Assembly (NCBI GenBank): GCA_964486045.1
Contig: CAZALK010000020.1
Coordinates: 16,985-80,984, forward strand
Direction: 5' to 3'
Length of the DNA stretch: 64,000 nucleotides
DNA from: an uncultured archaeon
Lineage (GTDB): Archaea > Asgardarchaeota > Lokiarchaeia > Sigyniarchaeales > SOKP01
The notes beneath the pieces are model-generated. The model saw only the letters and a list, made by a program, of their open reading frames with translations, was not told the origin of the DNA and ran no database searches. The translations under genes and the position numbers were made by a program. Below are positions 18,788 through 56,857 of the stretch, in pieces; positions within the stretch are counted from its first letter, which is position 1, and every line of letters starts with the position of its first letter.

Positions 18788-21700
18788 ATGCACATAAATC
18801 AAAAGATTTCTCTTAAAAAAAAGAGGATCAATTGCTTATTTGTTATAATTTCGATGTTTTTTTTAATTTTATTCATTAATTTGAATTTAATCAATAATTC
18901 GAATCTAACTATCTATGATTCAAAAAATCCAAATGAAGACCATAATGATTCCTTTCAAAATATAAAAACTTCCAATTCAGAATCTATTTTATTCCAAGGA
19001 ACTGAAGCCCATTTAAATATAACTGATACTGGTAATTTCTATGAATATAATCAAGAGATATCAGTATCGAATCAAGGGGAAACAAATTTAACATATTATT
19101 TAGACGATGTACATGACTGGAAAGGTTCAACAATAGAAACTACGATAACAAATATTCAAGATACTAGAAATTGGATTAATAATTCTGGATTTAAATCTCC
19201 TATAATTTATAGAGTATATCAAGTCTTTCAGACAGATCATAACTATTCAAATAATAATAATCTAAATTGGGCTAGTCCAGAATCTTCTGTTTTTGAGTCA
19301 GGAGCAAAATATATTAGAGTTCATTTTGTTAATTTTTCTTTTGAGCTAAGTTATGATTTTTTATATCTTGCTAATGAAACTAATGATATCTACTATGTGA
19401 ATGATAGTAAAGCATATGATTTATTTTCTCCGTGGATTCCTGGGGAATATATCAAAATAGATTATGATTCTGATAATTCTGTTGATGATTATGGTTATTA
19501 TATCGATTATTATGAATATATTAATGATAGTTCAAATACCGTAATTAATTCAGAATGGAGTTTTAATTATAACCAAATTGGAACAACTGGAAGGAATTAT
19601 AATGGGGTAAGTGAGATTGACAATAGTACAGCTATGTATGTTGCTATGTATGCAGAATATCTGGATTACAATCAATTTAGTTATGAAGATGGAGCATTTT
19701 CTGAAGTTTATCAGGATTTTAGTATACCTAGAGGTACAGTAAGTGACGCTTACATAAGTTTTGATTATTATGCTCAATATGGATTAGCAACGAATGATAA
19801 CTATGTATATGTTTCAATTAATAATAAAAAAATATATTCCAAAGGAATTGCAGATCTATTAGAGTTAGGTAAGAACCAATGGCATAAAACTGGAAAAATC
19901 ACTACTAATTTTTGGGTTAATTCTTCTTCTATTTTTGATTCAAATGTTCAAAATCAGCAATTTAATATTTCAATAGGGATAAAATGTGCTGGTGGGTATA
20001 CATACACTAATTTTGATGATGGCTTTTTAAATATTATTTGGTTTGATAATGTATCCTTAGTTTTATCAACAATAGGAAACTCAAGCCAAGATGATATAAA
20101 TTTAAAAATTAATTCAGAGAATTTATTTGAAGGAAATGAATGGGGGTTTTCAAACTTAAACTTCACCGGAATTTGGGAAACAAATCCAGTAACTCTATCA
20201 ATAAATACAACATCGCCGGATCTAAATTTCATTTTAAATACTACGATATATGGGAATCACTCTGGGACTTCAAAAATTAATCAACAAAATGATGAAGGAA
20301 TTAGCTATAAAATTTTGAATAACGGGTCAATTTATTGGGATTTTTTTCACAATTTTTATATGCCCTCTCAATACTCTGATTTTGAATTCAATATACAAAA
20401 GCCAAAAAATTGGAAATTTTTAGATAGTTTAGATCCTACTCTACAATCTCGATCATATGAAGGTGGAGATATAGGAGATTCATTTTTGAAGATTAACAAA
20501 ACAAATGCAATTTTTCCTGGATGGTGGTCATTTAGAGCTGAATCTCCTAATTACCTTAATATTTTAAATTCTAAAATACTTAAGGAAAGTCAGTGGGTTA
20601 CAAATGCGTCATTTAACACCGGAGAATCAACTCGAATAAAAACTCAATTAAATTACTCAGGTGAAATACCAAATGATGCAGGAGTAATTAATCTTACAAT
20701 ATATCATCCCAATGGAACGATTTTTTATGAAGAAAGCGTAGCGCCATTCGGTGGTAATGTATCATTTTCAGAAATTACCTTTGGGGTGTATAATACTAGT
20801 GGCGGTCTTTATGAATATACTCTATTTTGGAGTAATAGTACTGCATTAGGAGGTTTAATATCAAGTTTTATTGTCATGCATCAAAGTTCAATAACTTTAT
20901 TAAAACCGGATAATGCAATTTCCGATTTAATAACAGATGCTTTTTTTGGAGATATAATTCCATTACGGATCCAATTAAAAGATTTAGAAAATAATAGATC
21001 ACTTTCAGGAGCCATGGTTACTTATAATTGGTCAACAGGGTTAGAGAACTTTGCAGAAGCAGCTTTAGGAATATATGAAACAATATTAGATACCTCTGAA
21101 TTAAATTCAAATGGCTTTTATGAGATTTTCATCAATTCTTCCAAACTTGGATTTACAAATTATAATATAACAGTAAAAATCAATTTGCTTGAGGAAACTA
21201 ACTTACTCCGCTTGGAATCATCGTATTATATTGAATTACATGATAATAGTACAGTTAAATATAGTTATACTAATTTTTCAGGAGGTGGTATTTCAAGTGC
21301 TATTGTAGACATTAATTTAAATAATTCCTATTAGAGTATAACAGATTTTCTTGACGGTAATTATACTGTAGAATTCGATACTTCATATATTAATAATTTA
21401 GGAGTTCATCAAATAGAATTAAACTTTTCTAAACCTGCATTTGAAACTAAATATGCATTACTTCAGTTTGAAATAATAGAACAGTCTGTAAATTTGTCTG
21501 TATATATAAATTCTCAAAAAATTCAAGAAAACTCATTAATCGAAGCGATGTTTAAAGGAACTTTAAATATATCCGTAAGAATTTTTGCTACAATTGATGA
21601 GACCTATCTTTCAGGAGGTAATGTGACATGGGATTCTGACAAATATTATAAAGAAATTTTAGAAGGATCAAATTCTTGGTTTAATTATTCAATTCAATTA

Positions 21701-23590
21701 TCAAGTAACAATTTCTCAATGGGTTTAAATTTCGTGCTCATACAATTTGAGCAAGCAAATTATAGAATCAGCAGTTTTGGGTTCCAAATATTAATGGAAG
21801 CGCAAACTGTAAACATATCAACGTTTATAAATGGAGAAGAAATTCCTGAAAATTATATTGAAGAGTTAACTTTCAAGGAATCAATGAATATTTCAGTAAA
21901 AGTATTTGCTAATGGTGAGAGTGTTTATTTATCTGGGGCAAATGTCACATTAATCGGTGATACCCTTAACACAATAGTACCTGAAACTGTTTTTCCATGG
22001 TATAATACTTCCATTATAATTTCGAATTCTTATTTTAACCCCGGTGTAAATTATGTTTATTTAAAATTTCAACTTGAAAATTATACAACAGACACTTTTT
22101 CATTTCAATTGATAATCAAAACCCAAACACTTAATTTGTCTGTATATGTAAATTCAGAGAAAATATCAGAAAATAATCTTTTAGAATTCAGATTTAATGA
22201 AGAATTCTCTATTTCTGCCCAGAGTTTTGCGACTGCAGAGGAAGTTTATTTAACTGGAGGAATATTAACTTTTATTGCTAGTACTTATGAAAAAAACTTA
22301 ACAAATCTTTCCGATTGGTATAATTCAACAATATCCTGTTCACCAGACATTTTCTCAATAGGAGTTAATTATATATATTTGAGATTTCAAAAGGAGAATT
22401 ACTCTACAACTCTTTTTTCTTTTCAATTACTAATTGATCAAATTGATCTTCAAGTAGATTCGATAGGTTTTGAGGACACTATTAATGTCGAAATAGGTGA
22501 GACATTTATTATTCAGCTAAAACTATTAAATCCTAATAATAATATGACGATTGAGTCCGCTACTATAAGTTTCACGTGGGAATATGGATTTGGAGTGTTT
22601 AACGCTACACAAAATGGAATTTATCAATATACATTAAAATTACCTAAAAATCTAAGAGGAAATTATCAATTTAATCTAATTATTATTCCAGATAATACAA
22701 CTTATAAAGCAGTCCAACATTCTTTTGTTGTTGTAATTAATGAGCCAATTATCCAAAATAATTCTCCAGGATTTTTATTATTGAGCATTATTCTCATTTT
22801 AATTGGTATTGTGAGTGCATTAGGAGTTCTTAGTTTGAGATCTTATGTATTATTGCCAAGAAGAAGGAAAAAGGAATCAGAATTATTATCGAAGACTCAA
22901 AGATTCAAGGATCTTAAAAATATTCAAGCAATTGTTATGATACATAGAATAAGTGGAATACCACTTTACACAAAGACTTATTCGATTTTAGAAAAGCATA
23001 AAAAAGAATTGTTTTCAGGGTTTATTCAAGCTATTACAACAATTGGAGAAGAATTTACTGATTCTGAAGAAATAGAGAGTAGATTGGATGCAAAGAAAGA
23101 AAACTTCGGAATTGAAAAGATAATTGAATTAGATTTTAAATATTTTTATTGCTTAATTTCGGATAAAGAAGATATAAGAATAGTATTTATCCTCAAAGAA
23201 AAATCTTCAGAACGACTGAAAAGTCAAGTTTCACATCTTTTGCTGGCTTTAAACCTCAAATTATCACAATATATAGAAGATTGGGATGGTTCTTTAGACA
23301 TATTTGAGGAGATGGTTCCTACGATAATAGGTGAGTATTTCGAGTTATATTATAAAGGCTCATTTAAACTTCCTAAAAAATTAAATCTTTTTAAATTAAG
23401 GAAAGATAAGTCTCTGTCGAAGATGGAAATTCGAGTTCTAAATGTAGTTGAATCAATGTTAAAAAGGGGTGAGGAGATTCTAACTTTAAACAGTATTCTC
23501 GAATTGGTTAGTGAAGAAAATAAAGATCTGATTATTGAAGCAATTGAGGTATTGATAGAAAGAAAATTAATTATTCCCGTCAATCCTTAA
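18788..23590 (+). CDS. giant (about 1600 aa) sequon-rich surface protein with one TM helix and a cytoplasmic longin-like + wHTH tail; interrupted by one in-frame TAG at 21332..21334
   Basis: Track ORFs 18788..21334 and 21494..23590 share a frame. The gap translates without stops and continues the 107-aa repeat pattern (..LLQFEIIEQSVNLSVYINSQKIQEN). Features are an N-terminal anchor/signal helix (CLFVIISMFFLILFINL), very many N-x-S/T sequons, and SPGF + TM (LLLSIILILIGIVSALGVLSL) + RRRKKE. A roughly 240-aa tail follows. Confidence 0.75.
21482..22444 (+). repeat. three tandem 321-nt (107-aa) coding repeats inside the surface protein, with a more diverged copy upstream spanning the TAG
   Basis: Repeat heads are QSVNLSVYINSQKIQEN, AQTVNISTFINGEEIPEN and TQTLNLSVYVNSEKISEN. 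Shared blocks are NISV..FA...E.VYLSGG.VT and G(V/L)N(Y/F)..L.FQ..NY....F.FQ, at a period of 107 aa counted by hand. Confidence 0.8.
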
Positions 23591-23638
23591 ATTTATAATA
23601 ATAAAATTCAAATTTTAATTTATTTTTCTTTGACTTGA

Positions 23639-24259
23639 ATGGTAAATCCAGAAGAACTAAGATTTATCTGCACAAGATGTGGGAACTGTTGTACAGATCG
23701 CGATACTATTGTTAATATTACATACTTAGATATTTTAAGATTAAAAACAAGTTTAAAATTAGATCTGAAAGAAACCATTGAAGTTATTGGATTTTATGTA
23801 TTTCACAAGAAGTTAACTGAAAGAAACTTGAAGAAAATGGTTGTTTCTCCAATAGAAACTGAAAGGGGTTTAGCATTTACTGGTCTTCTTAAAAATAGCT
23901 TAGGTGAGTGTTATTTTTTTGATAATAAAAAATTGGAATGTTTAATTTATGATGTAAGACCTATGCTTTGTAGAACTTTTCCTTTCTCCTTTTATACAAC
24001 CAAGAATATTGAAAATCAAGCTAAAGGAAAGGTTGAGATTTGTTATACTGAGAAAGCTAAGGAATATTGCCCGGGTATAGGTTTAGACTCAGAAATTATT
24101 GAACATGATCACTGGTTAAAAATTGGTAAAGAAACTTTAAAACAACTAAAAAAAAACCATCTTTTTAATGAAAAATGGAATATTAACGTCAAAAATGGAA
24201 GTATATTACCAAAAGTGAAAAATTATCTTAGAACTATATTTAAGATTAACGAAACTTAA
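23639..24259 (+). CDS. YkgJ-family (UPF0153) cysteine-cluster protein
   Basis: FICTRCGNCCTD is present at the N-terminus, with later CLIYDVRPMLCRTFPF and CPGIG blocks typical of the zinc/iron-chelating YkgJ family. Confidence 0.7.
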   Translation: MVNPEELRFICTRCGNCCTDRDTIVNITYLDILRLKTSLKLDLKETIEVIGFYVFHKKLTERNLKKMVVSPIETERGLAFTGLLKNSLGECYFFDNKKLECLIYDVRPMLCRTFPFSFYTTKNIENQAKGKVEICYTEKAKEYCPGIGLDSEIIEHDHWLKIGKETLKQLKKNHLFNEKWNINVKNGSILPKVKNYLRTIFKINET

Positions 24260-26151: not shown

Positions 26152-26916
26152 ATGGAGGGTAATATTTTCGACCAGATTGCTAAAGATTATCACTCAAAAA
26201 GGAGAAAACCGTGGAAACCTCTTGAATTCTTTTTTAATTATTTAAAAAGGAAGAAATATTTGTTTAGAGGGATGTCTCTAGATTTGGGTTGTGCAAATGG
26301 TAGAAATTTCAAGATTTTAGGAAATTATCCCAAAAAGCTAATAGGAATTGATAATTCACTTGAATTCCTAAAATTAGCTCAGATTGGTTTAAAGAACTCA
26401 GAAAAATATCTAAAATCAGAATCAAATTTAATTCAAGTTCTTCTTGCAGATTTAAATTACCTACCAATTAGAAAAAATTCAATCCAAAATATTTTCTCCA
26501 TCGCGACTATTCACCATATTAAGCATAAATCTACACGAAATAAACTCATATCTCAATTTAATCATATTTTAAAAATAGATGGAAACCTTTTAATAACTGT
26601 GTGGCGTAAATGGCAAAAAAAATATCGAAGTTATTTTCTTTTAGATGGAATTAAAAGGAGTTTTAGTTTTAAACATAAGAAGCAACAAAAAATTGATGGT
26701 TTGAGTCAGTTTGGGGATAAATATATACCATGGACGCTTTCAGAAGAAAATATGATATTTAGTAGATATTATCATTTTTTTTCCAAACGAGAGGTTAAGA
26801 ATTTATTAAAGAACTTTACGATAAAAGAATTTAAAATTATGGGTGGTCCAAATAATCATGATAACTTTTTTATTTTAGCCCAAAAAAAAATTATCAGTGG
26901 CATTCAATCGAGTTGA
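26152..26916 (+). CDS. class I SAM-dependent methyltransferase, Trm9/ALKBH8-MT-like
   Basis: IFDQIAKDYHSKRRKPWKPLEFFFNYL followed by LDLGCANGRN (motif I) resembles the Trm9 N-terminal block (HFS-TR-x-x-WP...FL) plus the SAM motif. It ends in TGA. Confidence 0.55.
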   Translation: MEGNIFDQIAKDYHSKRRKPWKPLEFFFNYLKRKKYLFRGMSLDLGCANGRNFKILGNYPKKLIGIDNSLEFLKLAQIGLKNSEKYLKSESNLIQVLLADLNYLPIRKNSIQNIFSIATIHHIKHKSTRNKLISQFNHILKIDGNLLITVWRKWQKKYRSYFLLDGIKRSFSFKHKKQQKIDGLSQFGDKYIPWTLSEENMIFSRYYHFFSKREVKNLLKNFTIKEFKIMGGPNNHDNFFILAQKKIISGIQSS

Positions 26917-27385
26917 GGGTTTTCAACAGACTTGGTTTAAAATTATCATACATGCTTTCTATTACTGCCGTATGAATATTTATTAGTCTCTCAGATATTT
27001 CGCAAAAGAAAATACCATGTATTACCCTTTCAACAAAATATCTTTTTCTTATCATTTTCCTTCGATGCCCATACCAGAATGTAAATTCATGGGCCATTAG
27101 CCAATCTCTTTCTTTTTTAGTTACTACAATGCCTATTGCATTATAGGTTTCAATGCACCTTTCAACTTCTTTATAATAGAAAAGATTTGCTCTATCTTTT
27201 TTTTCCCAATTTAATTCAATTGTGGAATCTGGACCCCAAATCTCATCATAGTCATTTTGAGAATGAAATATAATTGAACCATTGTTTTCATCACCTTCAA
27301 ATTCTGTTTCTTTAAACCAAATCGCCATCTTATTAATTGATAAATTGCATTCCGATTTTTTGTATACATAAAAACTATATTCCAT
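26894..27385 (-). CDS. hypothetical protein
   Basis: 163-aa ORF. Its 3' end overlaps the convergent methyltransferase gene by 23 nt. Confidence 0.4.
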   Translation of the reverse strand: MEYSFYVYKKSECNLSINKMAIWFKETEFEGDENNGSIIFHSQNDYDEIWGPDSTIELNWEKKDRANLFYYKEVERCIETYNAIGIVVTKKERDWLMAHEFTFWYGHRRKMIRKRYFVERVIHGIFFCEISERLINIHTAVIESMYDNFKPSLLKTLNSIECH

Positions 27386-28269: not shown

Positions 28270-28908
28270 TTATTCCCTTTTAACGATGTCTAATTGTTCT
28301 AATTTTTTAAGTGCATCAGCAATCTCATTTCTTTTCGAGCTTAACATTCTCGAAATTTTCAGAGCTGAATTTTTTCCAGTGCATAATAAAGCAATTTGAA
28401 AATCATAATCGGTTATTAAACCCATTGTCAAGACTTTTTCTAATACACTTTTTGCGACCAGCAATTCAGGAAATCCTTCTGCGATTTTTCCTCCCCTTGT
28501 TAGATTTTCAACATCAGCATTTAATGTTTGAAATCGACCCTTTTCCGTTGTAGCTCTAAAGACTTTAAGATCTGACTGATGCTTTTTCCAAAATCTTTTT
28601 GCAATTTTATGAATTACATCCTTTATTTTTTCTGTATCATCATCTGCGTCAGAAATCGAACAAAATAAGACTCTAGATAAAGGATGATAATAAATTAGAA
28701 CAGTTGAATCTTCAGATTCTATAACTCTATTCATCTCATTCACTCGTCTTCCCTTTACCATTGATTCTTGAATGATATCGATTGTTTTACTAATCACATT
28801 AAAAAATCCAGTTAAAATATCATCTTGGATTTTTTTTAATTCTTTAAAGGTTGATTCAAAAAGTGAAATTCCATTATCTCCATCGATTAAATAAACTTTA
28901 TATATCAA
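28270..28908 (-). CDS. longin-like (SNARE-like fold) domain + C-terminal winged-helix protein
   Basis: 212 aa with a TTG start. IYKVYLIDGDNGISLFESTF..ILTGFFNVISKTIDII..TVLIYYHPLSRVLFCSISD follows a beta-beta-alpha-beta-beta-beta-alpha pattern. It aligns with the cytoplasmic tail of the 18788..23590 protein. The C-terminal ALKISRMLSSKRNEIADALKKLEQLDIV is wHTH-like. Confidence 0.55.
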   Translation of the reverse strand: MIYKVYLIDGDNGISLFESTFKELKKIQDDILTGFFNVISKTIDIIQESMVKGRRVNEMNRVIESEDSTVLIYYHPLSRVLFCSISDADDDTEKIKDVIHKIAKRFWKKHQSDLKVFRATTEKGRFQTLNADVENLTRGGKIAEGFPELLVAKSVLEKVLTMGLITDYDFQIALLCTGKNSALKISRMLSSKRNEIADALKKLEQLDIVKRE

Positions 28909-30339: not shown

Positions 30340-31806
30340 CTAAATATAAGTATGGATTAACTCCAGCAGATTTTTTGAGAAATCTGGTAAGTTTTTCTCT
30401 ATTTTTTTAATTTCAAGAGATTTTTCAATAAACATTAGTAAATATAAGTTATATTTTTCAACTTGGATTTTTTTAAAAACAACTTTCTTAGAGTCGTCAG
30501 CAATTCCGGTGGATACTAAAAAATCTTGTTTCAATACTTTGAATTCCTTAAAGGTTTTATACAAGGTTTGAAAGTGAGGTGCTGAGATTTCAAAAACCCT
30601 GTCAGATATCTCAGATTTTGAAAAATTGGATAATATTATTCCATTTTCGTTAAGTAATAAAATTGCGTCTGAATTCGTTTTTCTTGCGAATTGCTTCAAT
30701 TGATTTCTGAATAATTCTCGATTAGGACTTAACTGAGAAAGTCCATATGAATAAGCAGTAATAAGACTCCAATGGTCGAAAATACTAGTTTGGAATATTT
30801 TAGTTAAAAATCGATCAGATCTCTTTTCTACCTCATCAGCAATAATTTCTAAATTTTTAAATATTTCTTTTGAACCCTTCAGATCAGGATCGAATTTATT
30901 TAAACACACAACTATGGGCGGAAATTCATCTAATTCGACTAATATTTTCGAAATTCTTTGGAAAAGATTTAATGCTTCTTCAATTCTCTCTACATCTTGT
31001 ATATCAATAAAGAAGAAAATTAGATCAACATTATATAAATAGACTTGACTTTGCTCAAGAAATCTTTCTAAATATTTTTTTTGGCCACCTATATCCCATA
31101 GAGAGATTAACGAGTTCTGTTCTTCAAATATATTCTCTTCTGTTCTTTCAACACCTTTAGTAGGTAATGATTTGATAATTTCTGAATATTTCTTTCTGAT
31201 TCCATAAAGAAAACTTGATTTACCAGCCTTATCTAATCCTGTCAATAATATTTTAATTTGTCTTTTTGGAGAAAAAGGATCTTTTAATTCTTTTGTAAAC
31301 TCGAATAGTTCTTCTCTAATATCATCCATTATTCGTTTCTGGTCATTAAATTCTTTTACATTCTGAATTTGTGTAGCTGTTTTATCGATTATAATCCTTA
31401 AATATTTCATATTTTCATAAAAAAAAACCTTATCTTCTTCGTCAATTAATACAGTTATTGTCGCAGCTAGTGCTTGACCGCGTGCTTTTTCATCAGGGAT
31501 AAGAAAAAAATAAGTTAAGCCATTCAATTTTAAATCAGGAAAAGGAAGAATTCCAAAGTAGTTAACTCCTATGTCTGATCCCTGAGAATTTTGATAAACT
31601 GAATCACCCATAAGCAAACTAATAGTTTTCATAGCTATTAGAAGTCCTGATTTCTCTTCTAGGTTAGAAGGCCATATTATTCTAGGTGTTGGGCCTTTTT
31701 CATCAAAAATACTTAAAACAACCGCTTTTATTAGATTGGATTTTTTGTCACCTGTATCGTTTCCTTTCATCTTCTTCTTATTCGAATTTGAGTCGGTTTT
31801 TGCCAA
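30340..31806 (-). CDS. three-domain GTPase: N-terminal longin-like domain + Rag/Gtr-like G domain + C-terminal roadblock-like domain
   Basis: 488 aa. The N-domain covers about aa 25-145 (LIKAVVLSIFDEKGPTPRIIWP...ILPFPDLKLNGLTYFFLI). G1 is LLTGLDKAGKSS, G3 is WDIGGQ, G4 is NKFD and G5 is QTSIFDHWSLITAYS..LSP (as in Rag TSIWD...LIP). About 125 aa of alpha/beta C-domain follow. It ends in TAG. Confidence 0.7.
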   Translation of the reverse strand: MAKTDSNSNKKKMKGNDTGDKKSNLIKAVVLSIFDEKGPTPRIIWPSNLEEKSGLLIAMKTISLLMGDSVYQNSQGSDIGVNYFGILPFPDLKLNGLTYFFLIPDEKARGQALAATITVLIDEEDKVFFYENMKYLRIIIDKTATQIQNVKEFNDQKRIMDDIREELFEFTKELKDPFSPKRQIKILLTGLDKAGKSSFLYGIRKKYSEIIKSLPTKGVERTEENIFEEQNSLISLWDIGGQKKYLERFLEQSQVYLYNVDLIFFFIDIQDVERIEEALNLFQRISKILVELDEFPPIVVCLNKFDPDLKGSKEIFKNLEIIADEVEKRSDRFLTKIFQTSIFDHWSLITAYSYGLSQLSPNRELFRNQLKQFARKTNSDAILLLNENGIILSNFSKSEISDRVFEISAPHFQTLYKTFKEFKVLKQDFLVSTGIADDSKKVVFKKIQVEKYNLYLLMFIEKSLEIKKIEKNLPDFSKNLLELIHTYI

Positions 31807-33970: not shown

Positions 33971-34798
33971 TTGACTCTCTTTATGTTATTTTATAGGGAG
34001 AACGTAAATTATTATATGTCAAAATTATACTCATATTCCTCTTTACAACGATTTTTTAGCAGTATTTATTATATCTTGCAGGAGATTGATACAAAAATTG
34101 TTGAAGTCTGGTGTGAAATTCCAAGGATTACATTTTTTAAGAATCTTAGTAATTCTAAGCTTAGAGATTTCTTAGGGAAGTTTGAATTTATCTCCATTAA
34201 GAAGGGGAACTATATTTACTATGTTGTAATTAATAAAATATTATTTATCATCGATTGCATCAAATATTTACAATTTGACATTAAAAATCTTTCTGAAATT
34301 TTAGACTATAGTGGATTTGAGACATTAATAAAAGAGATTTTATCTAAAAACAGTTATCGGTCAATTACAAACTTCCGATTTTCAGATAAAAATAAGGTAG
34401 GATCAGAAAATTCACAGAAAAGGTATGAAATTGATGTTATAGGAATTTATTATAATTTTATTTTAATTATAGATGCAAAACAATGGAAACATAGAGATAC
34501 GTTTGGTTCATTAAATAAAGCAGCAACAAAGCAATATCATAGATTATTAGCCCTAAAAAGAAATCCAGGAGTCTTCGCAAAACTTATCTCTGAAATACTA
34601 GGTGAAAAACCCAATAAAAAAAAACACTTTCCATTAATATTAATTCCCGTTATTGTAACACAAGAAAATAATTATATTAAATTAAATGATGATCAGGTAC
34701 CACTTGTTTCGATTTATGAGTTAAATGCTTTTTTAGATGAATTACCAAACAACTTACACTATTTTAAAACCGTTCAAGTAGATAGAGTTTTTTTATAG
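33971..34798 (+). CDS. hypothetical protein with PD-(D/E)xK nuclease-like core
   Basis: YEIDVIGIYYNFILIIDAKQWK provides a D...(D)-x-K motif in a beta-strand context. The likely start is the ATG at 34016. It ends in TAG. Confidence 0.4.
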   Translation: MTLFMLFYRENVNYYMSKLYSYSSLQRFFSSIYYILQEIDTKIVEVWCEIPRITFFKNLSNSKLRDFLGKFEFISIKKGNYIYYVVINKILFIIDCIKYLQFDIKNLSEILDYSGFETLIKEILSKNSYRSITNFRFSDKNKVGSENSQKRYEIDVIGIYYNFILIIDAKQWKHRDTFGSLNKAATKQYHRLLALKRNPGVFAKLISEILGEKPNKKKHFPLILIPVIVTQENNYIKLNDDQVPLVSIYELNAFLDELPNNLHYFKTVQVDRVFL

Positions 34799-34868: not shown

Positions 34869-35954
34869 TTATTTTTTTAATCCTAAATAATGTTTTACTT
34901 GTTTTTTTATAAGATTCATAGCAATAGAAATAATACCACTCTTAACTTGAGGATGTGAAAACAGTATTAAAATCATATCTTTAAGACTCGAAGTTTCTAG
35001 ATCAAGAAATGCCATATCTAAAACTCCCTCAGTACCTCTCACTGATATCGATCTTAAAGCTCCAGCACTTAAACCATCGATGATATCCGCACTTATCATT
35101 GAAAGATTTATCCCTATTGTACCAAATAAGGATTCCGATATTCTACTTGAAATAGCTGACGCTAACATTGTCCCATCTGTTTTTATGATTGCTGATGCCT
35201 CAATTTTTGAATCTAAAGTTATCAATTCTTTTAATATCTCATTCATCGAAGCTGGTGGTAATTTATTTTTTGGTTCTTTCTGAGAAGTTGATTTAGGTTC
35301 TTTTAGTTTTATTTTATTTACGATAATTTTCTTTGATAGAAAACCAAGAACCTCCGACATGTCTTTCTCTAGTTTCTTCTGTTTTATAATAGCAAGATCT
35401 GAGTCTACAGTTTTAAGGGGGAGCGGAGTTGTAGATGGTTTAGGTTTCTTAATTTCAACTTCGAGAACAGATTTTTTAAGTTCTTTTAGTGCATCTGAGA
35501 TAACTCCATTAGATTTAGGGATGAGAGAAATGAATTCTTTTTTGTCTGAGAGAATAGTACCTTTAAATGGTTTCGGGGTTATTTCTTGTAATATTGGGGG
35601 GGTTTTTTCTTCTAAATTGTGTTTCGTTTCTAGAGGTATTTCTGTAAGGGAATCCGATTCAATTTCTTCATTATCTTCTATTGGAATATCACCAAGCTTT
35701 GAAAAATCACTTAGTTTCTCTTCTTCTATCGGTATCTCATGTAATTCTAATTCTTCTGGTTCTAGATCTTCCGGTACTTTAGGTTCTTCTATTATTTGAG
35801 TAATAGGAACTTTTTTTGCTTTTTCTTCTTTAACGGTTTTAGGTTTTTTAGGTCTAGAGGTTCTAGTAGAAATTGGTAGTAATGCCCCACATGTTCTACA
35901 GATACGAGTTTTTTTCTCATTATTTGTTGTCCCACAGTTATTACAAATTATTAT
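34869..35954 (-). CDS. zinc-ribbon + acidic linker + Roadblock/LC7 (MglB/LAMTOR-like) domain protein
   Basis: The track gives only 34869..35360 (the roadblock part: ASAIIKTDGTMLASAIS...ISVRGTEGVLDMAFL). The frame stays open upstream to the TAA at 35960..35958, which I checked codon by codon. That extension encodes ICNNCGTTNNEKKTRICRTCG (CxxC..CxxC) plus an E/P/K-rich linker. No ATG/GTG/TTG lies in the extension; an ATA at 35954..35952 is 8 nt after GGGGGAG. Confidence 0.65.
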   Translation of the reverse strand: MIICNNCGTTNNEKKTRICRTCGALLPISTRTSRPKKPKTVKEEKAKKVPITQIIEEPKVPEDLEPEELELHEIPIEEEKLSDFSKLGDIPIEDNEEIESDSLTEIPLETKHNLEEKTPPILQEITPKPFKGTILSDKKEFISLIPKSNGVISDALKELKKSVLEVEIKKPKPSTTPLPLKTVDSDLAIIKQKKLEKDMSEVLGFLSKKIIVNKIKLKEPKSTSQKEPKNKLPPASMNEILKELITLDSKIEASAIIKTDGTMLASAISSRISESLFGTIGINLSMISADIIDGLSAGALRSISVRGTEGVLDMAFLDLETSSLKDMILILFSHPQVKSGIISIAMNLIKKQVKHYLGLKK

Positions 35955-42862: not shown

Positions 42863-44362
42863 ATGGAAAGATTATTTGAATCTTCGCTAATTAAAGGATT
42901 TATATTTAGTGCCTACGGGGAACTAGGACCACAACCCGTTTATACATGGCCTAATTATTATACCGAAAAAGAAATAAAACAAATTAAAACTGAAGAAAAG
43001 AAATCTCTAATTTTATCATTAAGGGATGTCACTCAAATCTCAATAAAGAATCTCAGCTTATTTATAAGTGACAGAGAATTCTCACAAGAAAAAGACTTCC
43101 AAAATCTAAGATATTTCGCTATTTTACCCTATCCTGATTTTAAAGCAACATCTCTCACTTATTTTCATTATATTGAAAATGGTACTTTTGACCTACCTGT
43201 CGCCACCGCATTTTCAATATTAGTTGAGGAATATAGAAGAAGTTTCTTATACAATAATATAAACAGAATTAAACCGATAGTATCTGAATTCTTTACTCGG
43301 TTTGATCAAAAATTACTTGAGAATTATCCTCCTAAAGAAGAAATAGAAGAATTTTTTATTGAGTTGTTTAAACAGCTTAATGAGATTGAAAAAAATCCAT
43401 CAACCCCGATCACCTCTCACCGAAAATTAAAACTTATTTTTGCAGGTTTAGATGATTCTGGTAAAACCAGCTTCCTTTTAAGTGTTGATCGTAAATATAG
43501 TAAACTTATTGGGTTAAAACCAACTACAGGAGCGAGTATCAAATCAATTGAAGCTCTAGGTGCTACAATCTTTTTGTGGGACTTAGGTGGCCAGTTGAAA
43601 TTTCGAAGAAAGTATATAGATAAGGCTGAGATTTACTTATATGAAGCTGATTTAATTTTCTATTTTATTGACGTAAGAAATGAAAGTAGATTTGAAGAAA
43701 GCATAGAATATCTTCTTAGCATAAAAAAAGTATTAGGAGATTTTAAACAAAATACTCCAATTGTCTACATATTATCAAAAGGAGATTCTGATATTATAAA
43801 TACAGGAGAAATCAAAAATAATATTGAAAATGTGAAGAAAAAACTATTTGAAATTACTCCTAAAGAATCCCCTGAATTATATGTCACCAGTATCTTTCAA
43901 ATTTTTACAATTCTAAGGGCATTTTCTTCTGGAATTTCAAAATTAAGCCCTAATAGAAATTTAATAAATCATAACCTTAGAAATTTCTCTCTTAAAACAA
44001 AGGCTTTTTTAACATTACTCTTAAGTGAAGATGGTTTAGTTTTAGCAGACTTCTATTCCTCAAAAGCAAAGAAACTAACAAAGATTCCCAAATCTGAGGA
44101 ACTCATAAATGTTTTTGAGGTAACTGCACCTCAATTTGCCATGCTATTTAAAATCTTCTCAAGATTCAAAGCTTTAAAAGAAGAAGAAGCGATATTTAAA
44201 GTGTCTGATTCTGTAATCCTTTTTAAAAGGATCAAAGTTGTTGAGGAAAACATGTTCATTCTATTTCTGGTTGATAATGAGAAAAGAAAGGAAAAAATCA
44301 ACATTAAATTGCCCGTTTTCTTAGAGCAAACAAAAGAGTTATTGTTAAGATATATTGCATAA
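42863..44362 (+). CDS. three-domain GTPase: N-terminal longin-like domain + Rag/Gtr-like G domain + C-terminal roadblock-like domain (paralog of 30340..31806)
   Basis: 499 aa. The N-domain reads LIKGFIFSAYGELGPQPVYTWP...ILPYPDFKATSLTYFHYI. G1 is LIFAGLDDSGKTS, G3 is WDLGGQ, G4 is LSKGD and G5 is VTSIFQIFTILRAFSSGISKLSP. The C-domain reads LTLLLSEDGLVLADF.... Confidence 0.7.
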   Translation: MERLFESSLIKGFIFSAYGELGPQPVYTWPNYYTEKEIKQIKTEEKKSLILSLRDVTQISIKNLSLFISDREFSQEKDFQNLRYFAILPYPDFKATSLTYFHYIENGTFDLPVATAFSILVEEYRRSFLYNNINRIKPIVSEFFTRFDQKLLENYPPKEEIEEFFIELFKQLNEIEKNPSTPITSHRKLKLIFAGLDDSGKTSFLLSVDRKYSKLIGLKPTTGASIKSIEALGATIFLWDLGGQLKFRRKYIDKAEIYLYEADLIFYFIDVRNESRFEESIEYLLSIKKVLGDFKQNTPIVYILSKGDSDIINTGEIKNNIENVKKKLFEITPKESPELYVTSIFQIFTILRAFSSGISKLSPNRNLINHNLRNFSLKTKAFLTLLLSEDGLVLADFYSSKAKKLTKIPKSEELINVFEVTAPQFAMLFKIFSRFKALKEEEAIFKVSDSVILFKRIKVVEENMFILFLVDNEKRKEKINIKLPVFLEQTKELLLRYIA

Positions 44363-47417: not shown

Positions 47418-48272
47418 ATGTCAGAAAATAACCAGAGTAATCAAAACTCAGAAAAAGTAGAAGAAGCAGAAGCAAAAAAACCTGAGGATGAAGAAATAAA
47501 AGCTAAAACCAAATTCACTTTTAAATGCACTCGAGGTGGCGATTGTTGCATAGCTCGTGGACCTATTCCTATTACTTTTTGGGATTTAGAATTATGGGCA
47601 AAAAATGGAGTTGTTGCAAATTTCATGCCATATTTGGACATCTACCAAAAACCAGATGGAGCAATTGATTTAATATTAAAACCATTACCCCCAAAACCTA
47701 AAGAAGGAGAAGAAGAAGATACTAAAAAAGATCCATTCGGGGGGGGTATTCCGATTGAAGAATTACTTGATGTCAAGTGCCCGTTGTATAATAAGGATGA
47801 TAAAAAATGTCTTATTTATGACAATCGTCCACTAAGTTGCAGAACTTATCCTTTGGAATTTGATGGAAAGAATTATATCTTAGTCGATGCTGATTGTCCT
47901 GGTATAGGTGAATCGGGCATGACTAAGGAAGAATTAGTGAAGATGAGAGAAACAGCAAAAACAATGAATTATGAATTAACAAGGATGAGAATCGCTTTAC
48001 CAGTTTTAAATCAAGTTGTCTCCAATAATTTTATGAGAATGCTAATGAAACAACAAATGAATGCCATGAGTAATATGTCAGATGATGATCGGGGCAAACT
48101 TGACGATATACTCAAAAAACAAGAACCGGAACATAACCATGACTCAGAACATAACCATGACTTAGAACATGATCATGACTCAGAACATGATCACGACTCA
48201 GAACATGATCACGACTCTGAACATGATCACGACTCAGAACATGATCACGACTCAGAACATGATCATGAATAA
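47418..48272 (+). CDS. YkgJ-like cysteine-cluster protein with His/Asp-rich repetitive C-terminal tail
   Basis: FKCTRGGDCC, CLIYDNRPLSCRTYPL and CPGIG blocks make it a paralog of 23639..24259. The C-terminal (EH[ND]HD[SL])x8 tail is present. GGGAG lies 7 nt before the ATG. Confidence 0.7.
   Translation: MSENNQSNQNSEKVEEAEAKKPEDEEIKAKTKFTFKCTRGGDCCIARGPIPITFWDLELWAKNGVVANFMPYLDIYQKPDGAIDLILKPLPPKPKEGEEEDTKKDPFGGGIPIEELLDVKCPLYNKDDKKCLIYDNRPLSCRTYPLEFDGKNYILVDADCPGIGESGMTKEELVKMRETAKTMNYELTRMRIALPVLNQVVSNNFMRMLMKQQMNAMSNMSDDDRGKLDDILKKQEPEHNHDSEHNHDLEHDHDSEHDHDSEHDHDSEHDHDSEHDHDSEHDHE
48129..48272 (+). repeat. 18-bp tandem repeat x8 (coding) GAACATGATCACGACTCA
   Basis: Eight consecutive near-identical 18-mers run to the stop codon. 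The first two have AAC (Asn) in place of GAT/GAC. Confidence 0.9.
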
Positions 48273-51871: not shown

Positions 51872-52061
51872 TCAGCCAAACTTAAAAAATGCTATTCTTT
51901 CTATTTGGTAGTATACATTCCAATATAAAATGACCCTCACTAAAGCATGAGATTTGGAAATTTGGTATTTCCTAAAAATAAATTCAAAAACAAAAAAATT
52001 AAATTTTAAATAATATTTCAAAATTTAAATTCCTCATTAAATACACTATTTTTGGTGATTT

Positions 52062-52343
52062 TTGTCCATGGCAAACGGATTTAACGACGTAATAAAAACA
52101 GCTTTCGAAGAAGTTGAAAATCTTTTAAATGGGTTGTTAGGTGACCGAAGCGTACCCCGAAACATTAAAAGAGTTGCTCAGAAAGGTATCGATGAACTTA
52201 ATAAAGAGGATGAAACCGCTGGTGTGCTTGCCAGTAATGTTATGTATATGGTTGATGATTTAAGTTTAGATCCAAATATACCCTTTCATTCCCGTACTAC
52301 TATTTACAGAATTATTTCTATTTTAGAAAAAATTAAAGATTAA
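52062..52343 (+). CDS. UPF0147 family archaeal protein
   Basis: DRSVPRNIKRVAQKGIDEL...VDDLSLDPNIPFHSRTTIYRIISILE matches the UPF0147 pattern (D-x-x-V-PRN-I-R-x-A...DPN-M-P...R). The probable start is the ATG at 52068. Confidence 0.7.
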   Translation: MSMANGFNDVIKTAFEEVENLLNGLLGDRSVPRNIKRVAQKGIDELNKEDETAGVLASNVMYMVDDLSLDPNIPFHSRTTIYRIISILEKIKD

Positions 52344-52462
52344 ATCATTTCAAGAGCAATATTTAACTAATTATTTTTATTTGAAAAATTGGGGATTAAT
52401 CAACTCCTATTTATTAAATTTCATTTTATTAATACAAGAATTTATAGAATCCTAATACCTAT

Positions 52463-52536
52463 GGGAAGGTGGTCTAGATTGGTATGATTCTTGGTTCGGA
52501 ACCAAGAAACCGGGGGTTCAAATCCCCCCTTTCCCA
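52463..52536 (+). tRNA. tRNA-Pro (anticodon CGG)
   Basis: The 74-nt cloverleaf was folded by hand. The acceptor stem is GGGAAGG/CTTTCCC (one G-U). The anticodon stem is CTTGG/CCAAG with loop TTCGGAA, giving anticodon CGG. The T arm is GGGGG-TTCAAAT-CCCCC, the discriminator is A, and CCA is not encoded. It forms a G/C-rich island in AT-rich DNA. Confidence 0.85.
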
Positions 52537-52626
52537 ATAAATCTAACCCATTCATTTATAAAGTGAAATGTATTTAATTAGATAGGAATTAAGCAATTTA
52601 TTTAATTTAATTGGGGACTTTGAATT

Positions 52627-53331: not shown

Positions 53332-53439
53332 AAGATATCCTTAAGTTCTTTTTTTTTACTCAGCGAATAATATTTATATGTAAAAATTAAATTAATTGTT
53401 AAGAGTGAATTATTTATTGGTAGTTTTTAGTAAAATCCT

Positions 53440-54492
53440 TTGAAAACCATGGAAAGACAAATAATTAAAGCTGTAGTATACAGTAATTTAGATGAAGAAT
53501 TGGGTCCCGATCCTAAAGCTTTTACACCTGATAATTTTCCTCTAGTAAATTTAATGCTTATTAGTATGAAAACCTTTGCCGTTCTTACTGGTGAGAAAGG
53601 ATTTATACCGGAGTCACTAGTTATTCTTCCGTTTCCATCACTTAAACTAAAGGGTTTAATTAAGTATATTAATTGGGAGGACCCAAAGAAACGAGGGGGT
53701 TTTGGCCAATCTAATATTGCGATATTTTTCCAAGAAATGGATGATGCAATTTTTTATAAGTATTTAAAGGAACTCTCAGCTCCGTTTAACGATGTAGCCC
53801 AAAACATCGCATTTTTAGAAAAATCTAATGCTCCTAAGGAAGATTATATTAATGAGTTAATAAATCTTCAAAATGCATTAACCGAAATTTTAGAAGAATT
53901 AAGAAGCATAGAGCTTTCGAAGTCAAACGTTGAGTCGTTGGAAGGGAGAATTAAGGATAGGAATTTGATAGATTTTCAATTTAAAATTATTCTTGTAGGG
54001 GATCCAACGGTAGGAAAAACAAGTCTAATTCTAAGATATACTGATAATGCTTTTAGGCGAGCATATGTTTCAACTATGGGTGTTCATGTTTCAAATAAAA
54101 TATTTAAAGCTGAAGATTCTGCGATTATCCAGCTTGTTTTATGGGACATAGGAGGTCAAGAAAGATTTAAAATAATGAGGCAACAGTTTTATCAAGGATC
54201 TGATGCAGTATTTATAATTTTTGACCTTACTAATCCCGATTCATTTAGAGGTGTGCCTAATTGGTATTCAGATATACAAAAACTATTAAAATTAAATAAA
54301 GAAGATACTCTAGGTTTCCTAGTTGGAAATAAGAGGGATTTAGATAAGGACATAAAAATAAAATCTGAAGAGGCTCAAAATCTGGCCGAACAGTTCAATT
54401 TAGAATATCTTGAAACTTCAGCACTCTCAGGAGAAAACGTTTATGCCGTTTTCAGCAATATCGCCAATTTACTCTATGAATCGAGAAAATAA
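53440..54492 (+). CDS. N-terminal longin-like domain + Rab/Ras-like small GTPase
   Basis: 350 aa. The N-domain IIKAVVYSNLDEELGPDPKAF...LVILPFPSLKLKGLIKYI belongs to the same family as the N-domains of the Rag-like proteins. G1 is LVGDPTVGKTS and switch I is YVSTMGV. G3 is WDIGGQERF, G4 is GNKRDL and G5 is ETSALSG. The probable start is the ATG at 53449. Confidence 0.75.
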   Translation: MKTMERQIIKAVVYSNLDEELGPDPKAFTPDNFPLVNLMLISMKTFAVLTGEKGFIPESLVILPFPSLKLKGLIKYINWEDPKKRGGFGQSNIAIFFQEMDDAIFYKYLKELSAPFNDVAQNIAFLEKSNAPKEDYINELINLQNALTEILEELRSIELSKSNVESLEGRIKDRNLIDFQFKIILVGDPTVGKTSLILRYTDNAFRRAYVSTMGVHVSNKIFKAEDSAIIQLVLWDIGGQERFKIMRQQFYQGSDAVFIIFDLTNPDSFRGVPNWYSDIQKLLKLNKEDTLGFLVGNKRDLDKDIKIKSEEAQNLAEQFNLEYLETSALSGENVYAVFSNIANLLYESRK

Positions 54493-54671
54493 TTTTGGGT
54501 GAATAGATCGTGAAAGGATGGTTTCACGAACTTATAATTCTCTAAGAAATCTATCATTTAGATTAAGAATTTTTTTAAATTCAGACGGTTAACAGTGAAG
54601 TTTAAACTATAAATTGCCCGATTAAATTATATTAATTATTTCATTATTTTTCTATAAAGAGAGTAGATAAT

Positions 54672-55505
54672 TTGTATATTGATTGTCATGCACACTTATT
54701 TTTTAACCCTATTCACACAGAAGCTATTGATGAAGATATCACAGGTGTTATCCCAACTCCTAATACAGATTTTATAAGTAAAACGATCTCTAACGCAGAA
54801 GAGAAAGGAGTTAGTCATTTTGTTGGAGTAATAAGCGATCCTAATAATTTTCCCTATTATCAGATTCAATTGGAGTTAGAAAATATTATACACATAATCG
54901 GGATCTCAAGGGGTAATGCACTTGGAGACCAAACACATATGTTTTCTCTACTGGAAAAGGAAATAGAAACAAAAATACCTCAAGGTATAGGAGAGATTGG
55001 TTTAGATTATGAATATGGTTTTGATAAGTTAAATATCCATGAAAAAAACTTGATGAAAAAAAAACAGCAGGAATTATTTGGAAAGTAAATTCAAATAGCA
55101 AAAGAAATTAATATCCCTATTGTCGTGCATGCTGGGTATGGAACAGATAAAGATATTGTTACAATATTAAAACAAGAACAAGCTCAAGATGTGGGGGGGC
55201 AAATTCATGGGTATATGTCTAATGAGGTGTTAGTTTCTGAACTACTTGATATTGGTTTTTACTTTTCATTTGGATATTTTCACACGAGAGAAGACGAATT
55301 CAAAAAAATAATTGAATTAGTCCCTTTAGAACACCTTCTTGCTGAAACTGATTATCCATATCATTTACTGGATTCTCCAAAGAGATTTATATTTCCAGAA
55401 GATGTAGTTTTAATAACTGACGAGATTGTTACTTTAAAAGTGATTGATTCTAAAATTTTTTGTAATCAGGTAATGAGAAATGCTAGACGACTCTTTAGAT
55501 ACTAG
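54672..55505 (+). CDS. tatD: TatD-family metal-dependent hydrolase, interrupted by one in-frame TAA at 55086..55088
   Basis: Track ORFs 54672..55088 and 55125..55505 share a frame. The junction reads KKQQELFGK*IQIAKEINIPIVVHAG and aligns with the conserved TatD block Q-x-x-x-F-x-x-Q-[IL]-x-[IL]-A-x-E-x-x-x-P-[VI]-x-[IV]-H, with the stop at the Gln position. The N-terminus is IDCHAHL. The final stop is TAG. Confidence 0.75.
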
Positions 55506-55807
55506 ATACGACATAGAAACCGAGAAGATCCAACTCACTGAATATTTAGAAATGTTAAGATTTATTTTTACTTTTAGTTTTAAATTCAAAAATCTTAAAT
55601 AAAAATTACTTATTATACTGAACTAATAAAAATTTTCGTCAAAAGAAGAGATAACAGATGAAGGTTGTCTTATTTAAGACAATTTTTTAAATATTTTAGA
55701 TGTAAAGATTCTTAATTAAAATAACACCAATATTTTATAAAACTACATATATAAGTTTACAAATGAAGAAAGACTAACTATTTTGTTATATAACGCATTT
55801 CTTTATT

Positions 55808-56857
55808 ATGATGAAAGAGATTATTAAATCTATTGTCTACACCTCAATGGATGAGAGGTTAGGACCGAGTCCGCATTTATGGTTGCCATTAGATTTACCC
55901 GAAGATATTCGAATGGGAGTAAGCATAAAATCAATTACGATGCTTACAACAGATCAAGGAATTATCCCTAAATCATTAGTAATCATGCCCTTCCCTTCTT
56001 TTGGACAAAAAGGATTGATAAAATATATTGAACGTGCAGATGATTCTCGCCGCGGAGGTATAGCATTATCATCAATTACACTATTATTTGATGAAGCCGA
56101 TGATCTTATTTTCTATAAATACTTGGATTACCTTGAAACTGCGTTTTCTAAAAGCGCCCAGAAAATTATTGAATTAGAAAATCAGAATGCAGAAAGCGTT
56201 GAGATTTATGCAGAGATAAATATCCTTCGAAAAAACCTCACAGAAATTTTAAATGATTTACAAAACAAAGAAAAATCAATTATTGAAGGAAAGGCGTTTC
56301 CTAAAGAAGAAACTGATAAAGAGTTAGTTGGATTTCATTCCAAAATTATTGTATGTGGAGATCCATCTGTAGGTAAAACCAGTACTATCCTACGATTTAC
56401 TGATAACGCTTTCATCCGTACTTATATCCCTACTTTAGGTGTAAGTATTTCTGAGAAAACTATCAAAATAAAAGAAGAGTATGTGAATTTAATCTTTTGG
56501 GATATAGCTGGACAAAGTAAATTTGAAATGATGAGGAGACATTTTTATCAAGGTGCAGAAGCGGTAATTGTTATATTTGATCTAACAAATCGTAAGTCAT
56601 TTGAAAGTGTTTCAGGTTGGTATAAGGACATAAAGAGGTACATCGAAATCTACCAAAACACTTTAATAGGGTTTGTTTTAGGAAATAAAGAGGATTTAGT
56701 TGGTGAGAGGAAAGTTTCAACTGCAGAGGCTAGTAGTGTAGCCAAAAGTCTAAACATTGGATACGTCGAGACTTCAGCTAAGACTGGTAAAAATGTTGAA
56801 CAGTTATTTTATAGAATAGCAGATTCTTTATTAAAAACAAAAAAAAAAAATGATTAA
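55808..56857 (+). CDS. N-terminal longin-like domain + Rab/Ras-like small GTPase (paralog of 53440..54492)
   Basis: 349 aa. The N-domain reads IIKSIVYTSMDERLGPSPHLW...LVIMPFPSFGQKGLIKYI. G1 is VCGDPSVGKTS and switch I is YIPTLGV. G3 is WDIAGQSKF, G4 is GNKEDL and G5 is ETSAKTGKNV. There is no C-terminal Cys (no prenylation motif). Confidence 0.75.
   Translation: MMKEIIKSIVYTSMDERLGPSPHLWLPLDLPEDIRMGVSIKSITMLTTDQGIIPKSLVIMPFPSFGQKGLIKYIERADDSRRGGIALSSITLLFDEADDLIFYKYLDYLETAFSKSAQKIIELENQNAESVEIYAEINILRKNLTEILNDLQNKEKSIIEGKAFPKEETDKELVGFHSKIIVCGDPSVGKTSTILRFTDNAFIRTYIPTLGVSISEKTIKIKEEYVNLIFWDIAGQSKFEMMRRHFYQGAEAVIVIFDLTNRKSFESVSGWYKDIKRYIEIYQNTLIGFVLGNKEDLVGERKVSTAEASSVAKSLNIGYVETSAKTGKNVEQLFYRIADSLLKTKKKND

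Follow-up and report, generated by a model that had tools for sequence, protein, structure and literature searches.

Does a gene-dense stretch of Asgard archaeal DNA that brings small GTPases together with their typical platform domains encode one regulatory circuit, or a set of separate switches? The question is raised by a region of about 38 kb within the 64,000-nucleotide window that was analysed here (contig CAZALK010000020.1; positions below are those of the window), in which the original prediction, made from the sequence alone, had seen GTPases, longin and roadblock proteins and a surface receptor joined in a common pathway. Our profile and fold searches assigned the domains in question to the longin, roadblock and winged helix-turn-helix (wHTH) folds that had been proposed and not to unrelated folds. 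On balance, we read the window as part of a chromosome from a Promethearchaeota genome of the Lokiarchaeia (Asgard) type, holding eight members of the lineage's expanded small GTPase/longin/roadblock repertoire (Table 1). With similarly modest confidence, we favour the reading that each GTPase is a self-contained multi-domain switch rather than part of a shared circuit. The window has a G+C content of ~30%, and the nearest relatives of its proteins come from Promethearchaeota and Lokiarchaeia metagenome-assembled genomes (70-91% identity). The region of interest contains ~32 genes; the eight GTPase-related ones lie on both strands with housekeeping genes between them, so that there is no operon structure. 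The interleaved genes include those for threonine synthase (ThrS), homoserine dehydrogenase, NrdD, phosphoenolpyruvate (PEP) synthase, TBP, MtrH, methyltransferases and a nuclease-related domain (NERD) protein, among others.

Table 1. GTPase-related genes of the window, with predicted domain parts, followed by other features mentioned in the text (ORF, open reading frame; G domain, GTPase domain; TM, transmembrane segment).
Feature	Position (strand)	Length	Parts	Pfam match (E value)	G-domain motifs
Longin - Rag/Arf-like GTPase - roadblock	30340-31806 (-)	488 aa	longin ~31297-31743; G domain ~30757-31254; roadblock ~30343-30747	Gtr1_RagA (5e-25)	GLDKAGKSS, WDIGGQ, NKFD
Rag-like GTPase - roadblock	36191-37165 (-)	324 aa	without N-terminal longin	Gtr1_RagA (2e-24)	GLDDAGKTS, WDLGGQ, HKYD (Rag-type)
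Second longin - Rag/Arf-like GTPase - roadblock	42863-44362 (+)	499 aa		Gtr1_RagA (2.5e-18)	GLDDSGKTS, WDLGGQ, SKGD
Longin - Ras/Rab-like GTPase	53440-54492 (+)	350 aa		Ras (2.8e-45)	GDPTVGKTS, WDIGGQ, NKRD
Longin - Ras/Rab-like GTPase	55808-56857 (+)	349 aa	longin aa 1-165; polybasic C-terminus	Ras (6.2e-48)	GDPSVGKTS, WDIAGQ, NKED
Zn-ribbon (CNNC...CRTC) - low-complexity linker - roadblock/LC7	34869-35954 (-)	~360 aa	roadblock ~34872-35255		
Longin + winged-helix protein	28270-28908 (-)	212 aa	longin ~aa 1-120; wHTH ~aa 150-212		
Giant type-I surface protein	18788-23590 (+)	~1,600 aa if read through	ORFs 18788-21334 and 21494-23590; signal anchor aa 12-36; TM ~aa 1325-1353 (nt ~22760-22846); cytoplasmic tail 247 aa (nt 22850-23590)		
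Protein near the longin-wHTH gene	26894-27385 (-)	163 aa			
NERD gene	33971-34798 (+)				
CxxCxxCC-domain protein	47418-48272 (+)				
Second CxxCxxCC protein	23639-24259				
TatD-family hydrolase, split	54672-55088 and 55125-55505 (+)				
M29 aminopeptidase, split	16573-17073 and 17203-17682 (+)				
ABC-transporter permeases, tandem	58970-60061 and 60717-61799 (-)			BPD_transp_1	
tRNA-Pro (CGG)	52462-52537 (+)				

All five of the predicted small GTPase genes (three called Rag-like and two Rab/Ras-like) were matched by Pfam, and canonical P-loop, DxxGQ and N/H/SKxD motifs can be read in each. The three Rag-likes scored 88.6, 86.7 and 66.8 bits against Gtr1_RagA (cut-off 22), with Arf second at 56-63 bits. 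Because the Arf profile also passes and matches to Arl3/Arf in the PDB are as good as those to RagA, 'Rag/Arf-like' is the safe label for these three; their P-loop is of the Arf type (GLDxxGKT), and the Rag-type HKxD occurs solely in the 324-aa protein. Close homologues have deposited crystal structures (8yl2, 8zla/9m28 and 8yqg). The 324-aa protein aligned with 8yl2 chain A over its full length (E 7.5e-88, aa 10-319) and with 8zla/9m28 at 2e-30, 9m28 being labelled in Foldseek as 'monomeric Rag-like small GTPase from Asgard Lokiarchaeota (LokiRagM)'. The 488-aa protein matched 8yl2_A at 2.9e-32, and it is 33% identical to its 499-aa paralogue over the full length. The two tandem genes encode 45% identical paralogues with a Ras-superfamily G domain. 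Neither product has a prenylatable C-terminal cysteine (the ends read '...NLLYESRK' and '...LLKTKKKND'), and they are therefore Ras-like (RasL) proteins rather than bona fide Rabs, a label that agrees with PMC10933270 and bioRxiv 2024.02.28.582541; of the predicted 'Rab/Ras-like' identity, the Ras-superfamily part stands and the true Rab part does not.

Roadblock-like domains had been expected at the C-terminus of three of the GTPases, and these were found in the three Rag-likes. A profile of their last 130-135 aa, built with orthologues, matched residues 215-342 of 8yl2_A at 7e-23 and, weakly but specifically, the roadblock C-terminal domains of RagA (residues 202-282, 0.014; 6ehr_F, 0.23) and Gtr1 (residues 174-243, 0.075). 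Full-length alignments to RagA/Gtr1 extend ~50-65 residues into the C-terminal domains of the latter. By these profile matches the C-domains are Rag-type roadblocks, which would mediate dimerisation as in RagA/C and Gtr1/2, while the G domain, given its canonical motifs, would bind and hydrolyse GTP.

At the other end, an N-terminal domain of ~165 aa is common to four of the five GTPases (19-43% pairwise identity), as had been proposed from a shared longin-like motif with which the conserved residues agree. In the numbering of the 349-aa protein, an alignment of 50 homologues shows almost no variation at G19-P20, K41, P61-F62-P63, G69, R82-G83, E96 and F102-Y103; across sets of 22-50 homologues the GP is invariant or at least 90% conserved, and the R-G is at least 90% conserved. 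An AlphaFold2 model of aa 1-165 of this protein (predicted local distance difference test (pLDDT) 88.6, predicted template modelling score (pTM) 0.83) has the element order β-β-α-β-β-β-α-α of the longin topology (E6-15, E19-26, H32-46, E58-62, E67-77, E85-95, H96-125, H130-163), with no N-terminal helix. In the model, G19-P20 are the first residues of β2 and R82-G83 lie in the β4-β5 turn, which a 2-1-5-4-3 sheet would bring to the end where the β1-β2 loop also lies.

When the model was compared with the PDB using Foldseek, the best match was 8yqg, 'Longin domain from a Lokiarchaeota Roadblock-Longin protein' (3e-6), followed by the GATOR1 chains 9o5a_H, 9v0j_A and 7t3b_B (2.5e-5), which judged by their length are most likely NPRL2. 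Further matches were, in order, the SEA complex (8adl_S), Lst4, FLCN complexes (8dhb_J, 6nzd_H) and SMCR8/C9orf72; the DENN proteins DENND10 and DENND1A were also among them. The sequence profile of the domain matched 8yqg at 3e-6 as well, with GP aligned to the GP of 8yqg; against the PDB it did not reach FLCN or NPRL2, which were reached by the fold search alone. Folliculin, matched weakly by six of 22 N-domains, was the sole Pfam family matched by more than two, and its match in the 488-aa protein covered aa 97-158 (0.0017). Matches of the N-domain profile, and of the longin-wHTH profile described below, to a 'CAP repeat' and to the GCN4 coiled coil were dismissed as repeat/coiled-coil artefacts. 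At the level of the modelled fold, these data place the N-domain among longins of the FLCN/NPRL2/SMCR8 kind.

What such a longin might do when fused to a GTPase can be approached through its two conserved loop motifs. According to PMC12290439, longins that act as GTPase-activating proteins (GAPs) are marked by a GP motif that closes the β1-β2 loop or opens β2 and lies spatially beside an Arg finger; the motif is specific to these longins and missing from those of DENND and TRAPP. The R-G is kept in the 488-aa protein (GP and 'ARG') and in both Ras-likes (GP and 'KRGG' in the 350-aa protein). Under the favoured reading, the N-terminal longin, being of this 'GAP-longin' type, would dimerise and offer its loop Arg beside GP to the G domain in cis or in trans, and the fused longin would thus be a built-in GTPase-activating or regulatory platform. 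We infer this GAP action, along with the dimerisation and the partner pairings proposed here, for proteins whose domain identities, motifs, homologies and synteny were shown.

Several points weigh against a built-in GAP. The equivalence of loop R82 with the catalytic Arg finger (NPRL2 Arg78, FLCN Arg164, SMCR8 Arg147) would rest on topology and on the motif description in PMC12290439. The longin of 8yqg has the GP and no Arg at the loop position. The 499-aa longin likewise keeps GP and lacks the loop Arg ('ENGTFDLP'), with an insert after β2, and the same combination was seen in 11/11 of its orthologues with the N-domain recovered (63-88% N-domain identity). Moreover, most longins are platforms of guanine nucleotide exchange factors (GEFs), not GAPs; roadblock and longin platforms are described in the introduction of PMC10933270 as acting mainly as GEFs. 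The N-terminal longin could accordingly serve nucleotide exchange, dimerisation or localisation in the manner of the DENN, Mon1-Ccz1 and TRAPP platforms, with the Arg-Gly having a structural role, and such a role would fit the conservation of the Arg-less 499-aa family, the DENND10 and DENND1A matches and the description of 8yqg, the closest solved homologue, as a dimeric longin. We nevertheless consider this alternative unlikely: the best eukaryotic structural matches are longins of GAP complexes (GATOR1, SEA, Lst4, FLCN and SMCR8), GP is the motif that DENND and TRAPP longins reportedly lack, and R-G is conserved at the level given above.

The self-contained switch that we favour resembles in several respects the eukaryotic Rag systems, in which Rag/Gtr GTPases are served by longin GAP complexes (FLCN-FNIP, GATOR1 NPRL2-NPRL3 and C9orf72-SMCR8) and by the roadblock platforms of Ragulator. 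The window Rag-likes match Gtr1_RagA best, their roadblock C-terminal domains are related to those of RagA/Gtr1, and the N-domain, whose best eukaryotic fold matches are GATOR1, SEA, Lst4 and FLCN longins, carries a GP motif and a loop Arg. The Arg-bearing 488-aa and Arg-less 499-aa proteins mirror the FLCN/FNIP and NPRL2/NPRL3 pairs, which act on Rag heterodimers. Unlike in eukaryotes, longin, GTPase and roadblock are here on a single polypeptide instead of separate subunits, the P-loop is Arf-like with the Rag-type HKxD in one of three proteins, and the window has no TOR, Ragulator p18 or lysosome context, the GAP role of its longins being putative. One could extend the likeness to a 488-aa/499-aa heterodimer, a primordial and self-contained form of the Rag switch in which one GAP longin is catalytic and the other is not, with the longin-wHTH protein and its receptor-tethered homologue as a platform coupling such GTPases to an extracellular signal. 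We regard this proposal as doubtful; if true, two chains would do what eukaryotes divide among RagA/C and the longins of FLCN-FNIP or NPRL2-NPRL3.

A candidate partner of one of these GTPases is encoded next to the 324-aa Rag-like gene, directly downstream on the same strand across a gap of ~235 bp. A Zn-ribbon + Roadblock/LC7 protein had been predicted in the window, and an uninterrupted frame together with matches to Roadblock structures bears this out. The ORF list showed just a 163-aa Cys-free ORF at 34869-35360, from which a first call of 'no Zn ribbon' was made; this call was overturned by an orthologue (L001; 356 aa, Zn ribbon at the N-terminus, TTG start) and by six-frame translation. 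The frame, which reads 'IIICNNCGTTNNEKKTRICRTCG...', is uninterrupted back to ~35954. Its N-terminus was missed in the ORF list because it has no ATG/GTG/TTG start; an ATA-ATA-ATT (35946-35954, -) follows a TAA stop and a Shine-Dalgarno-like GGGGGAG, and the start codon may be a non-canonical ATA or ATT. A profile of 27 orthologous C-terminal domains matched 7f8m_A at 1.5e-4 (positions 17-116 against residues 20-112 of 120), 7yh1_D at 0.007 and 9jue_D at 0.054, 7f8m and 7yh1 being Thorarchaeota and MK-D1 Roadblock crystal structures. Pfam Robl_LC7 was not matched by the protein at E <= 0.1, and matches of the roadblock profile to 'Cake' designed repeats were dismissed as repeat artefacts.

This arrangement recalls bacterial MglA-MglB, a Ras-like GTPase and its roadblock GAP/GEF encoded by adjacent genes, in that a GTPase gene is followed by a roadblock gene on the same strand, in an order kept in 49-51/51 of the related loci described below. 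The roadblock of the Zn-ribbon protein also has relatives among Asgard Roadblock proteins, whose structures are close to that of MglB (PMC10933270). The Zn-ribbon-roadblock protein is thus a plausible MglB-like partner of the 324-aa Rag-like GTPase. Unlike MglA, the window GTPase has its own C-terminal roadblock, and unlike MglB its neighbour combines a Zn ribbon with a low-complexity linker of ~200 aa; co-transcription of the two genes across the intergenic gap is putative. As a separate observation, a NERD gene lies on the opposite strand between NrdD and the Zn-ribbon-roadblock gene and is kept in 51/51 loci.

Two further proteins carry a longin joined to a wHTH, one soluble and one at the cytoplasmic end of a surface protein, and both compositions had been foreseen. 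The soluble 212-aa protein is 70-89% identical to more than 100 Promethearchaeota proteins of ~211 aa, all unnamed and without a Pfam domain, and it belongs to a small family, with 46 clusters in a set of 1.84 billion representatives. Its AlphaFold2 model, from a shallow alignment, reached a pLDDT of just 58 and shows ββαβββα followed by helices; at that model quality, 50/50 of the best Foldseek matches belonged to the roadblock/longin superfamily, with top E values of 0.01-0.07. A family profile from a diverse alignment matched longins in its N-terminal half (VAMP7/SYBL1 4.7e-4 to 2e-3, AP2 sigma 1.5e-3) and wHTH domains of the MarR/ArsR/TFE type at its C-terminal end (0.01-0.3; ZitR/ArsR-type 0.01). 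Among 24 members, Pfam matched TrmB in seven, HTH_47 in six, HTH_24 in three, and Longin, Clat_adaptor_s and DUF742 in one each, the last at 2.6e-4. A 163-aa protein with no Pfam match is encoded near the longin-wHTH gene in 39/40 loci, and a homologue of it directly follows a distant (28% identity) longin-wHTH member on an unrelated marine metagenome contig (L099, 916-1383); the linkage of the two may be conserved.

The surface protein has a signal anchor; its ectodomain carries repeats of ~110 aa and 55 N-x-S/T sequons and is followed by a TM segment and a cytoplasmic tail. Its two ORFs are in the same frame and are parted by a single TAG (21332-21334), past which the translation continues smoothly. 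The codon specifies Tyr in orthologues from 14 or more related genomes, one relative having an intact 1,612-aa gene; a reading of the TAG as pyrrolysine was rejected on account of that Tyr, and the TAG is a nonsense mutation or a sequencing error. The tail is homologous to the 212-aa family: hhalign joined the two over 186 columns with a probability of 96.9% (E 1.3e-10) when the diverse alignment was used, compared with 33% for the shallow one. A PDB search with the tail gave no direct match, and neither Pfam nor NCBIfam matched the tail, the ectodomain, the 212-aa protein or the roadblock domain of the Zn-ribbon protein. The longin-wHTH family and its receptor-tethered form are possibly new, as no description of them was found in the open-access literature text; they may serve as further platform proteins.

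To assess whether these genes belong together, 80 loci around the 212-aa gene were collected from species-representative Promethearchaeota genomes (54-88% identity), and gene retention was counted in the 51 loci that extend 9 kb or more on the GTPase side and in 40 loci on the other side. The 488-aa GTPase, NERD and Zn-ribbon-roadblock genes were kept in all 51 and the 324-aa GTPase gene in 49, with the 488-aa orthologue always 0.1-2.1 kb from the 212-aa gene, while interleaved genes were variable (transglutaminase 42, NrdD 41, ThrS 14). On the other side, unrelated genes were kept in 35-39/40 loci and the surface-protein tail in 27/40. The gene order of the whole window recurs in two metagenome contigs (L084 and L093). 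The block is therefore conserved across Promethearchaeota and ancestral to the class, but genes unrelated to the GTPases keep their place just as well, so that synteny gives the GTPase-related ones no special standing. In keeping with self-contained switches, co-location would then reflect class-wide inherited gene order and one old tandem duplication rather than an operon. Weighing against independent switches, retention of the GTPase-related genes in 49-51/51 loci versus the variable NrdD, transglutaminase and ThrS could mean that their linkage is under selection.

These data also bear on the common pathway of the original prediction, in which the surface protein senses the outside, its longin-wHTH tail and the soluble paralogue regulate the Rag- and Rab-like GTPases, and transcription is the output. 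Such a network would account for the homology of tail and soluble protein over their whole length, for their place in a conserved Promethearchaeota block with the 488-aa GTPase within ~2 kb in 51/51 loci, and for the better conservation of the 212-aa, 488-aa and 324-aa proteins (73-77% median identity) than of NrdD (51%). A distant longin-wHTH homologue (P0305) also has a 181-aa Ras-like GTPase gene 77 bp downstream on the same strand, on two contigs. Against this, no GTPase gene adjoins the distant longin-wHTH homologue in three of four other informative contexts, a longin-Rab homologue in a Helarchaeota genome has an unrelated neighbourhood, and the window genes are on mixed strands with housekeeping genes between them and unrelated neighbours that are just as syntenic. 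Further, a membrane-tethered wHTH cannot be an ordinary transcription factor unless cleaved, DNA binding by the wHTH is putative, and the surface-protein gene carries a premature TAG in this genome. Taken together, the common pathway finds no specific support here and seems quite unlikely; the neighbouring Rag-like and Zn-ribbon-roadblock genes and the neighbouring P0305 and GTPase genes are local hints of coupling, nothing more.

A sensor coupled to small GTPases also invites comparison with the actinobacterial conservon. As reportedly described by Komatsu et al. in 2006, this consists of a membrane sensor (CvnA), a roadblock/LC7 protein (CvnB), a DUF742 wHTH-like protein (CvnC) and a small GTPase (CvnD). 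Its four genes form a tight operon, and its sensor is histidine-kinase-like. The window likewise has a membrane protein, roadblock/longin-fold proteins, a wHTH-like module and small GTPases, and the DUF742 match of one longin-wHTH family member, which is to the wHTH-like conservon component, speaks in the same sense for a network. Unlike a conservon, however, the window genes are spread across both strands of a 38-kb region and do not form one operon, the longin is fused to the wHTH, and the membrane protein is giant, repetitive and glycoprotein-like.

Could the clustering instead have no functional meaning, abundant paralogous families having come together within 38 kb through chance and tandem duplication? 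The background frequency of small GTPase genes is ~2% (109/5,381 genes in Lokiarchaeum, PMC4917890; 74 genes in MK-D1, PMC10933270). Against that background, five GTPases in ~32 genes have P ~4e-4, or ~0.07 such windows per genome, whereas ~0.5-0.6 windows per genome are expected if the tandem Ras-like pair, being paralogues, is counted once. The clustering is thus borderline beyond chance. Counted as five genes it argues against a wholly meaningless grouping, as does the retained order of the Rag-like and Zn-ribbon-roadblock genes, and we think such an explanation very unlikely.

How far, then, do these genes go beyond what is published? The claim that the wiring is not a characterised system overstated the novelty of its parts. 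Longin- or roadblock-fused Arf-, Rag- and Ras-like GTPases were reported in Lokiarchaeum in 2016, in the part of PMC4917890 that cites Klinger et al. Tran et al. 2024 catalogued 74 small GTPases in MK-D1, 26 of them fused to roadblock or longin domains, longin-G-roadblock included, and described their genes as 'not generally in operons' together with genes for roadblock or longin proteins (PMC10933270). Homologue structures have been deposited, and in 2025 the GP + Arg-finger class was described in free-standing Asgard longins, with the question of their GTPase partners raised in the same study (PMC12290439). The window genes share the architectures of known Asgard multi-domain GTPases (longin-G-roadblock, G-roadblock and longin-G) and their scattered, non-operonic placement; they are further orthologues and paralogues from another genome, and the window holds no new kind of protein beyond the published ones. 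Three points are not stated in the accessible published text, namely that the fused longin is of the GP + Arg type, that it is fused to Ras/Rab-like domains, and that an Arg-less paralogue is conserved. Possibly new are this conserved Arg-less paralogue alongside the Arg-bearing one, the small, highly conserved longin-wHTH family and its membrane-tethered copy.

In eukaryotes, membrane traffic and nutrient sensing depend centrally on Rag, Arf and Rab switches and on the longins and roadblocks that regulate them, and the Asgard versions bear on how this machinery came about. Here, the GP/Arg longin type is fused to both Rag/Arf-like and Ras-like G domains, and these fusions, read as a 'Rosetta-stone' argument, therefore bear on the question raised in 2025 of which GTPases partner Asgard GP/Arg longins. 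The Arg-plus/Arg-minus paralogue pair and the longin-wHTH family with its tethered copy are concrete biochemical targets in cultured Lokiarchaeia.

Several minor features of the window and of related loci were also recorded. On a Helarchaeota contig (L096/L097, 8147-9084, -), an ArsR-type HTH_5 gene lies 30 bp upstream of the gene for a 190-aa Arf/Rag-like GTPase on the same strand, a further case of a small wHTH gene paired with a GTPase gene in an Asgard archaeon. Within the window, a TatD-family hydrolase gene and an M29 aminopeptidase gene are each broken into two ORFs that match the Pfam model in complementary stretches. Taken with the surface-protein TAG and with the lack of a canonical start in the Zn-ribbon-roadblock gene, these splits suggest assembly errors or several pseudogenes on the contig. 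Tandem, near-identical ABC-transporter permease genes, with ~650 bp between them, point to a recent duplication. Of the two CxxCxxCC proteins, the one at 47418-48272 has a long C-terminal 'DSEHDHD' His/Asp-rich repeat. ARAGORN and Rfam detected the tRNA-Pro gene as the sole RNA gene of the window.

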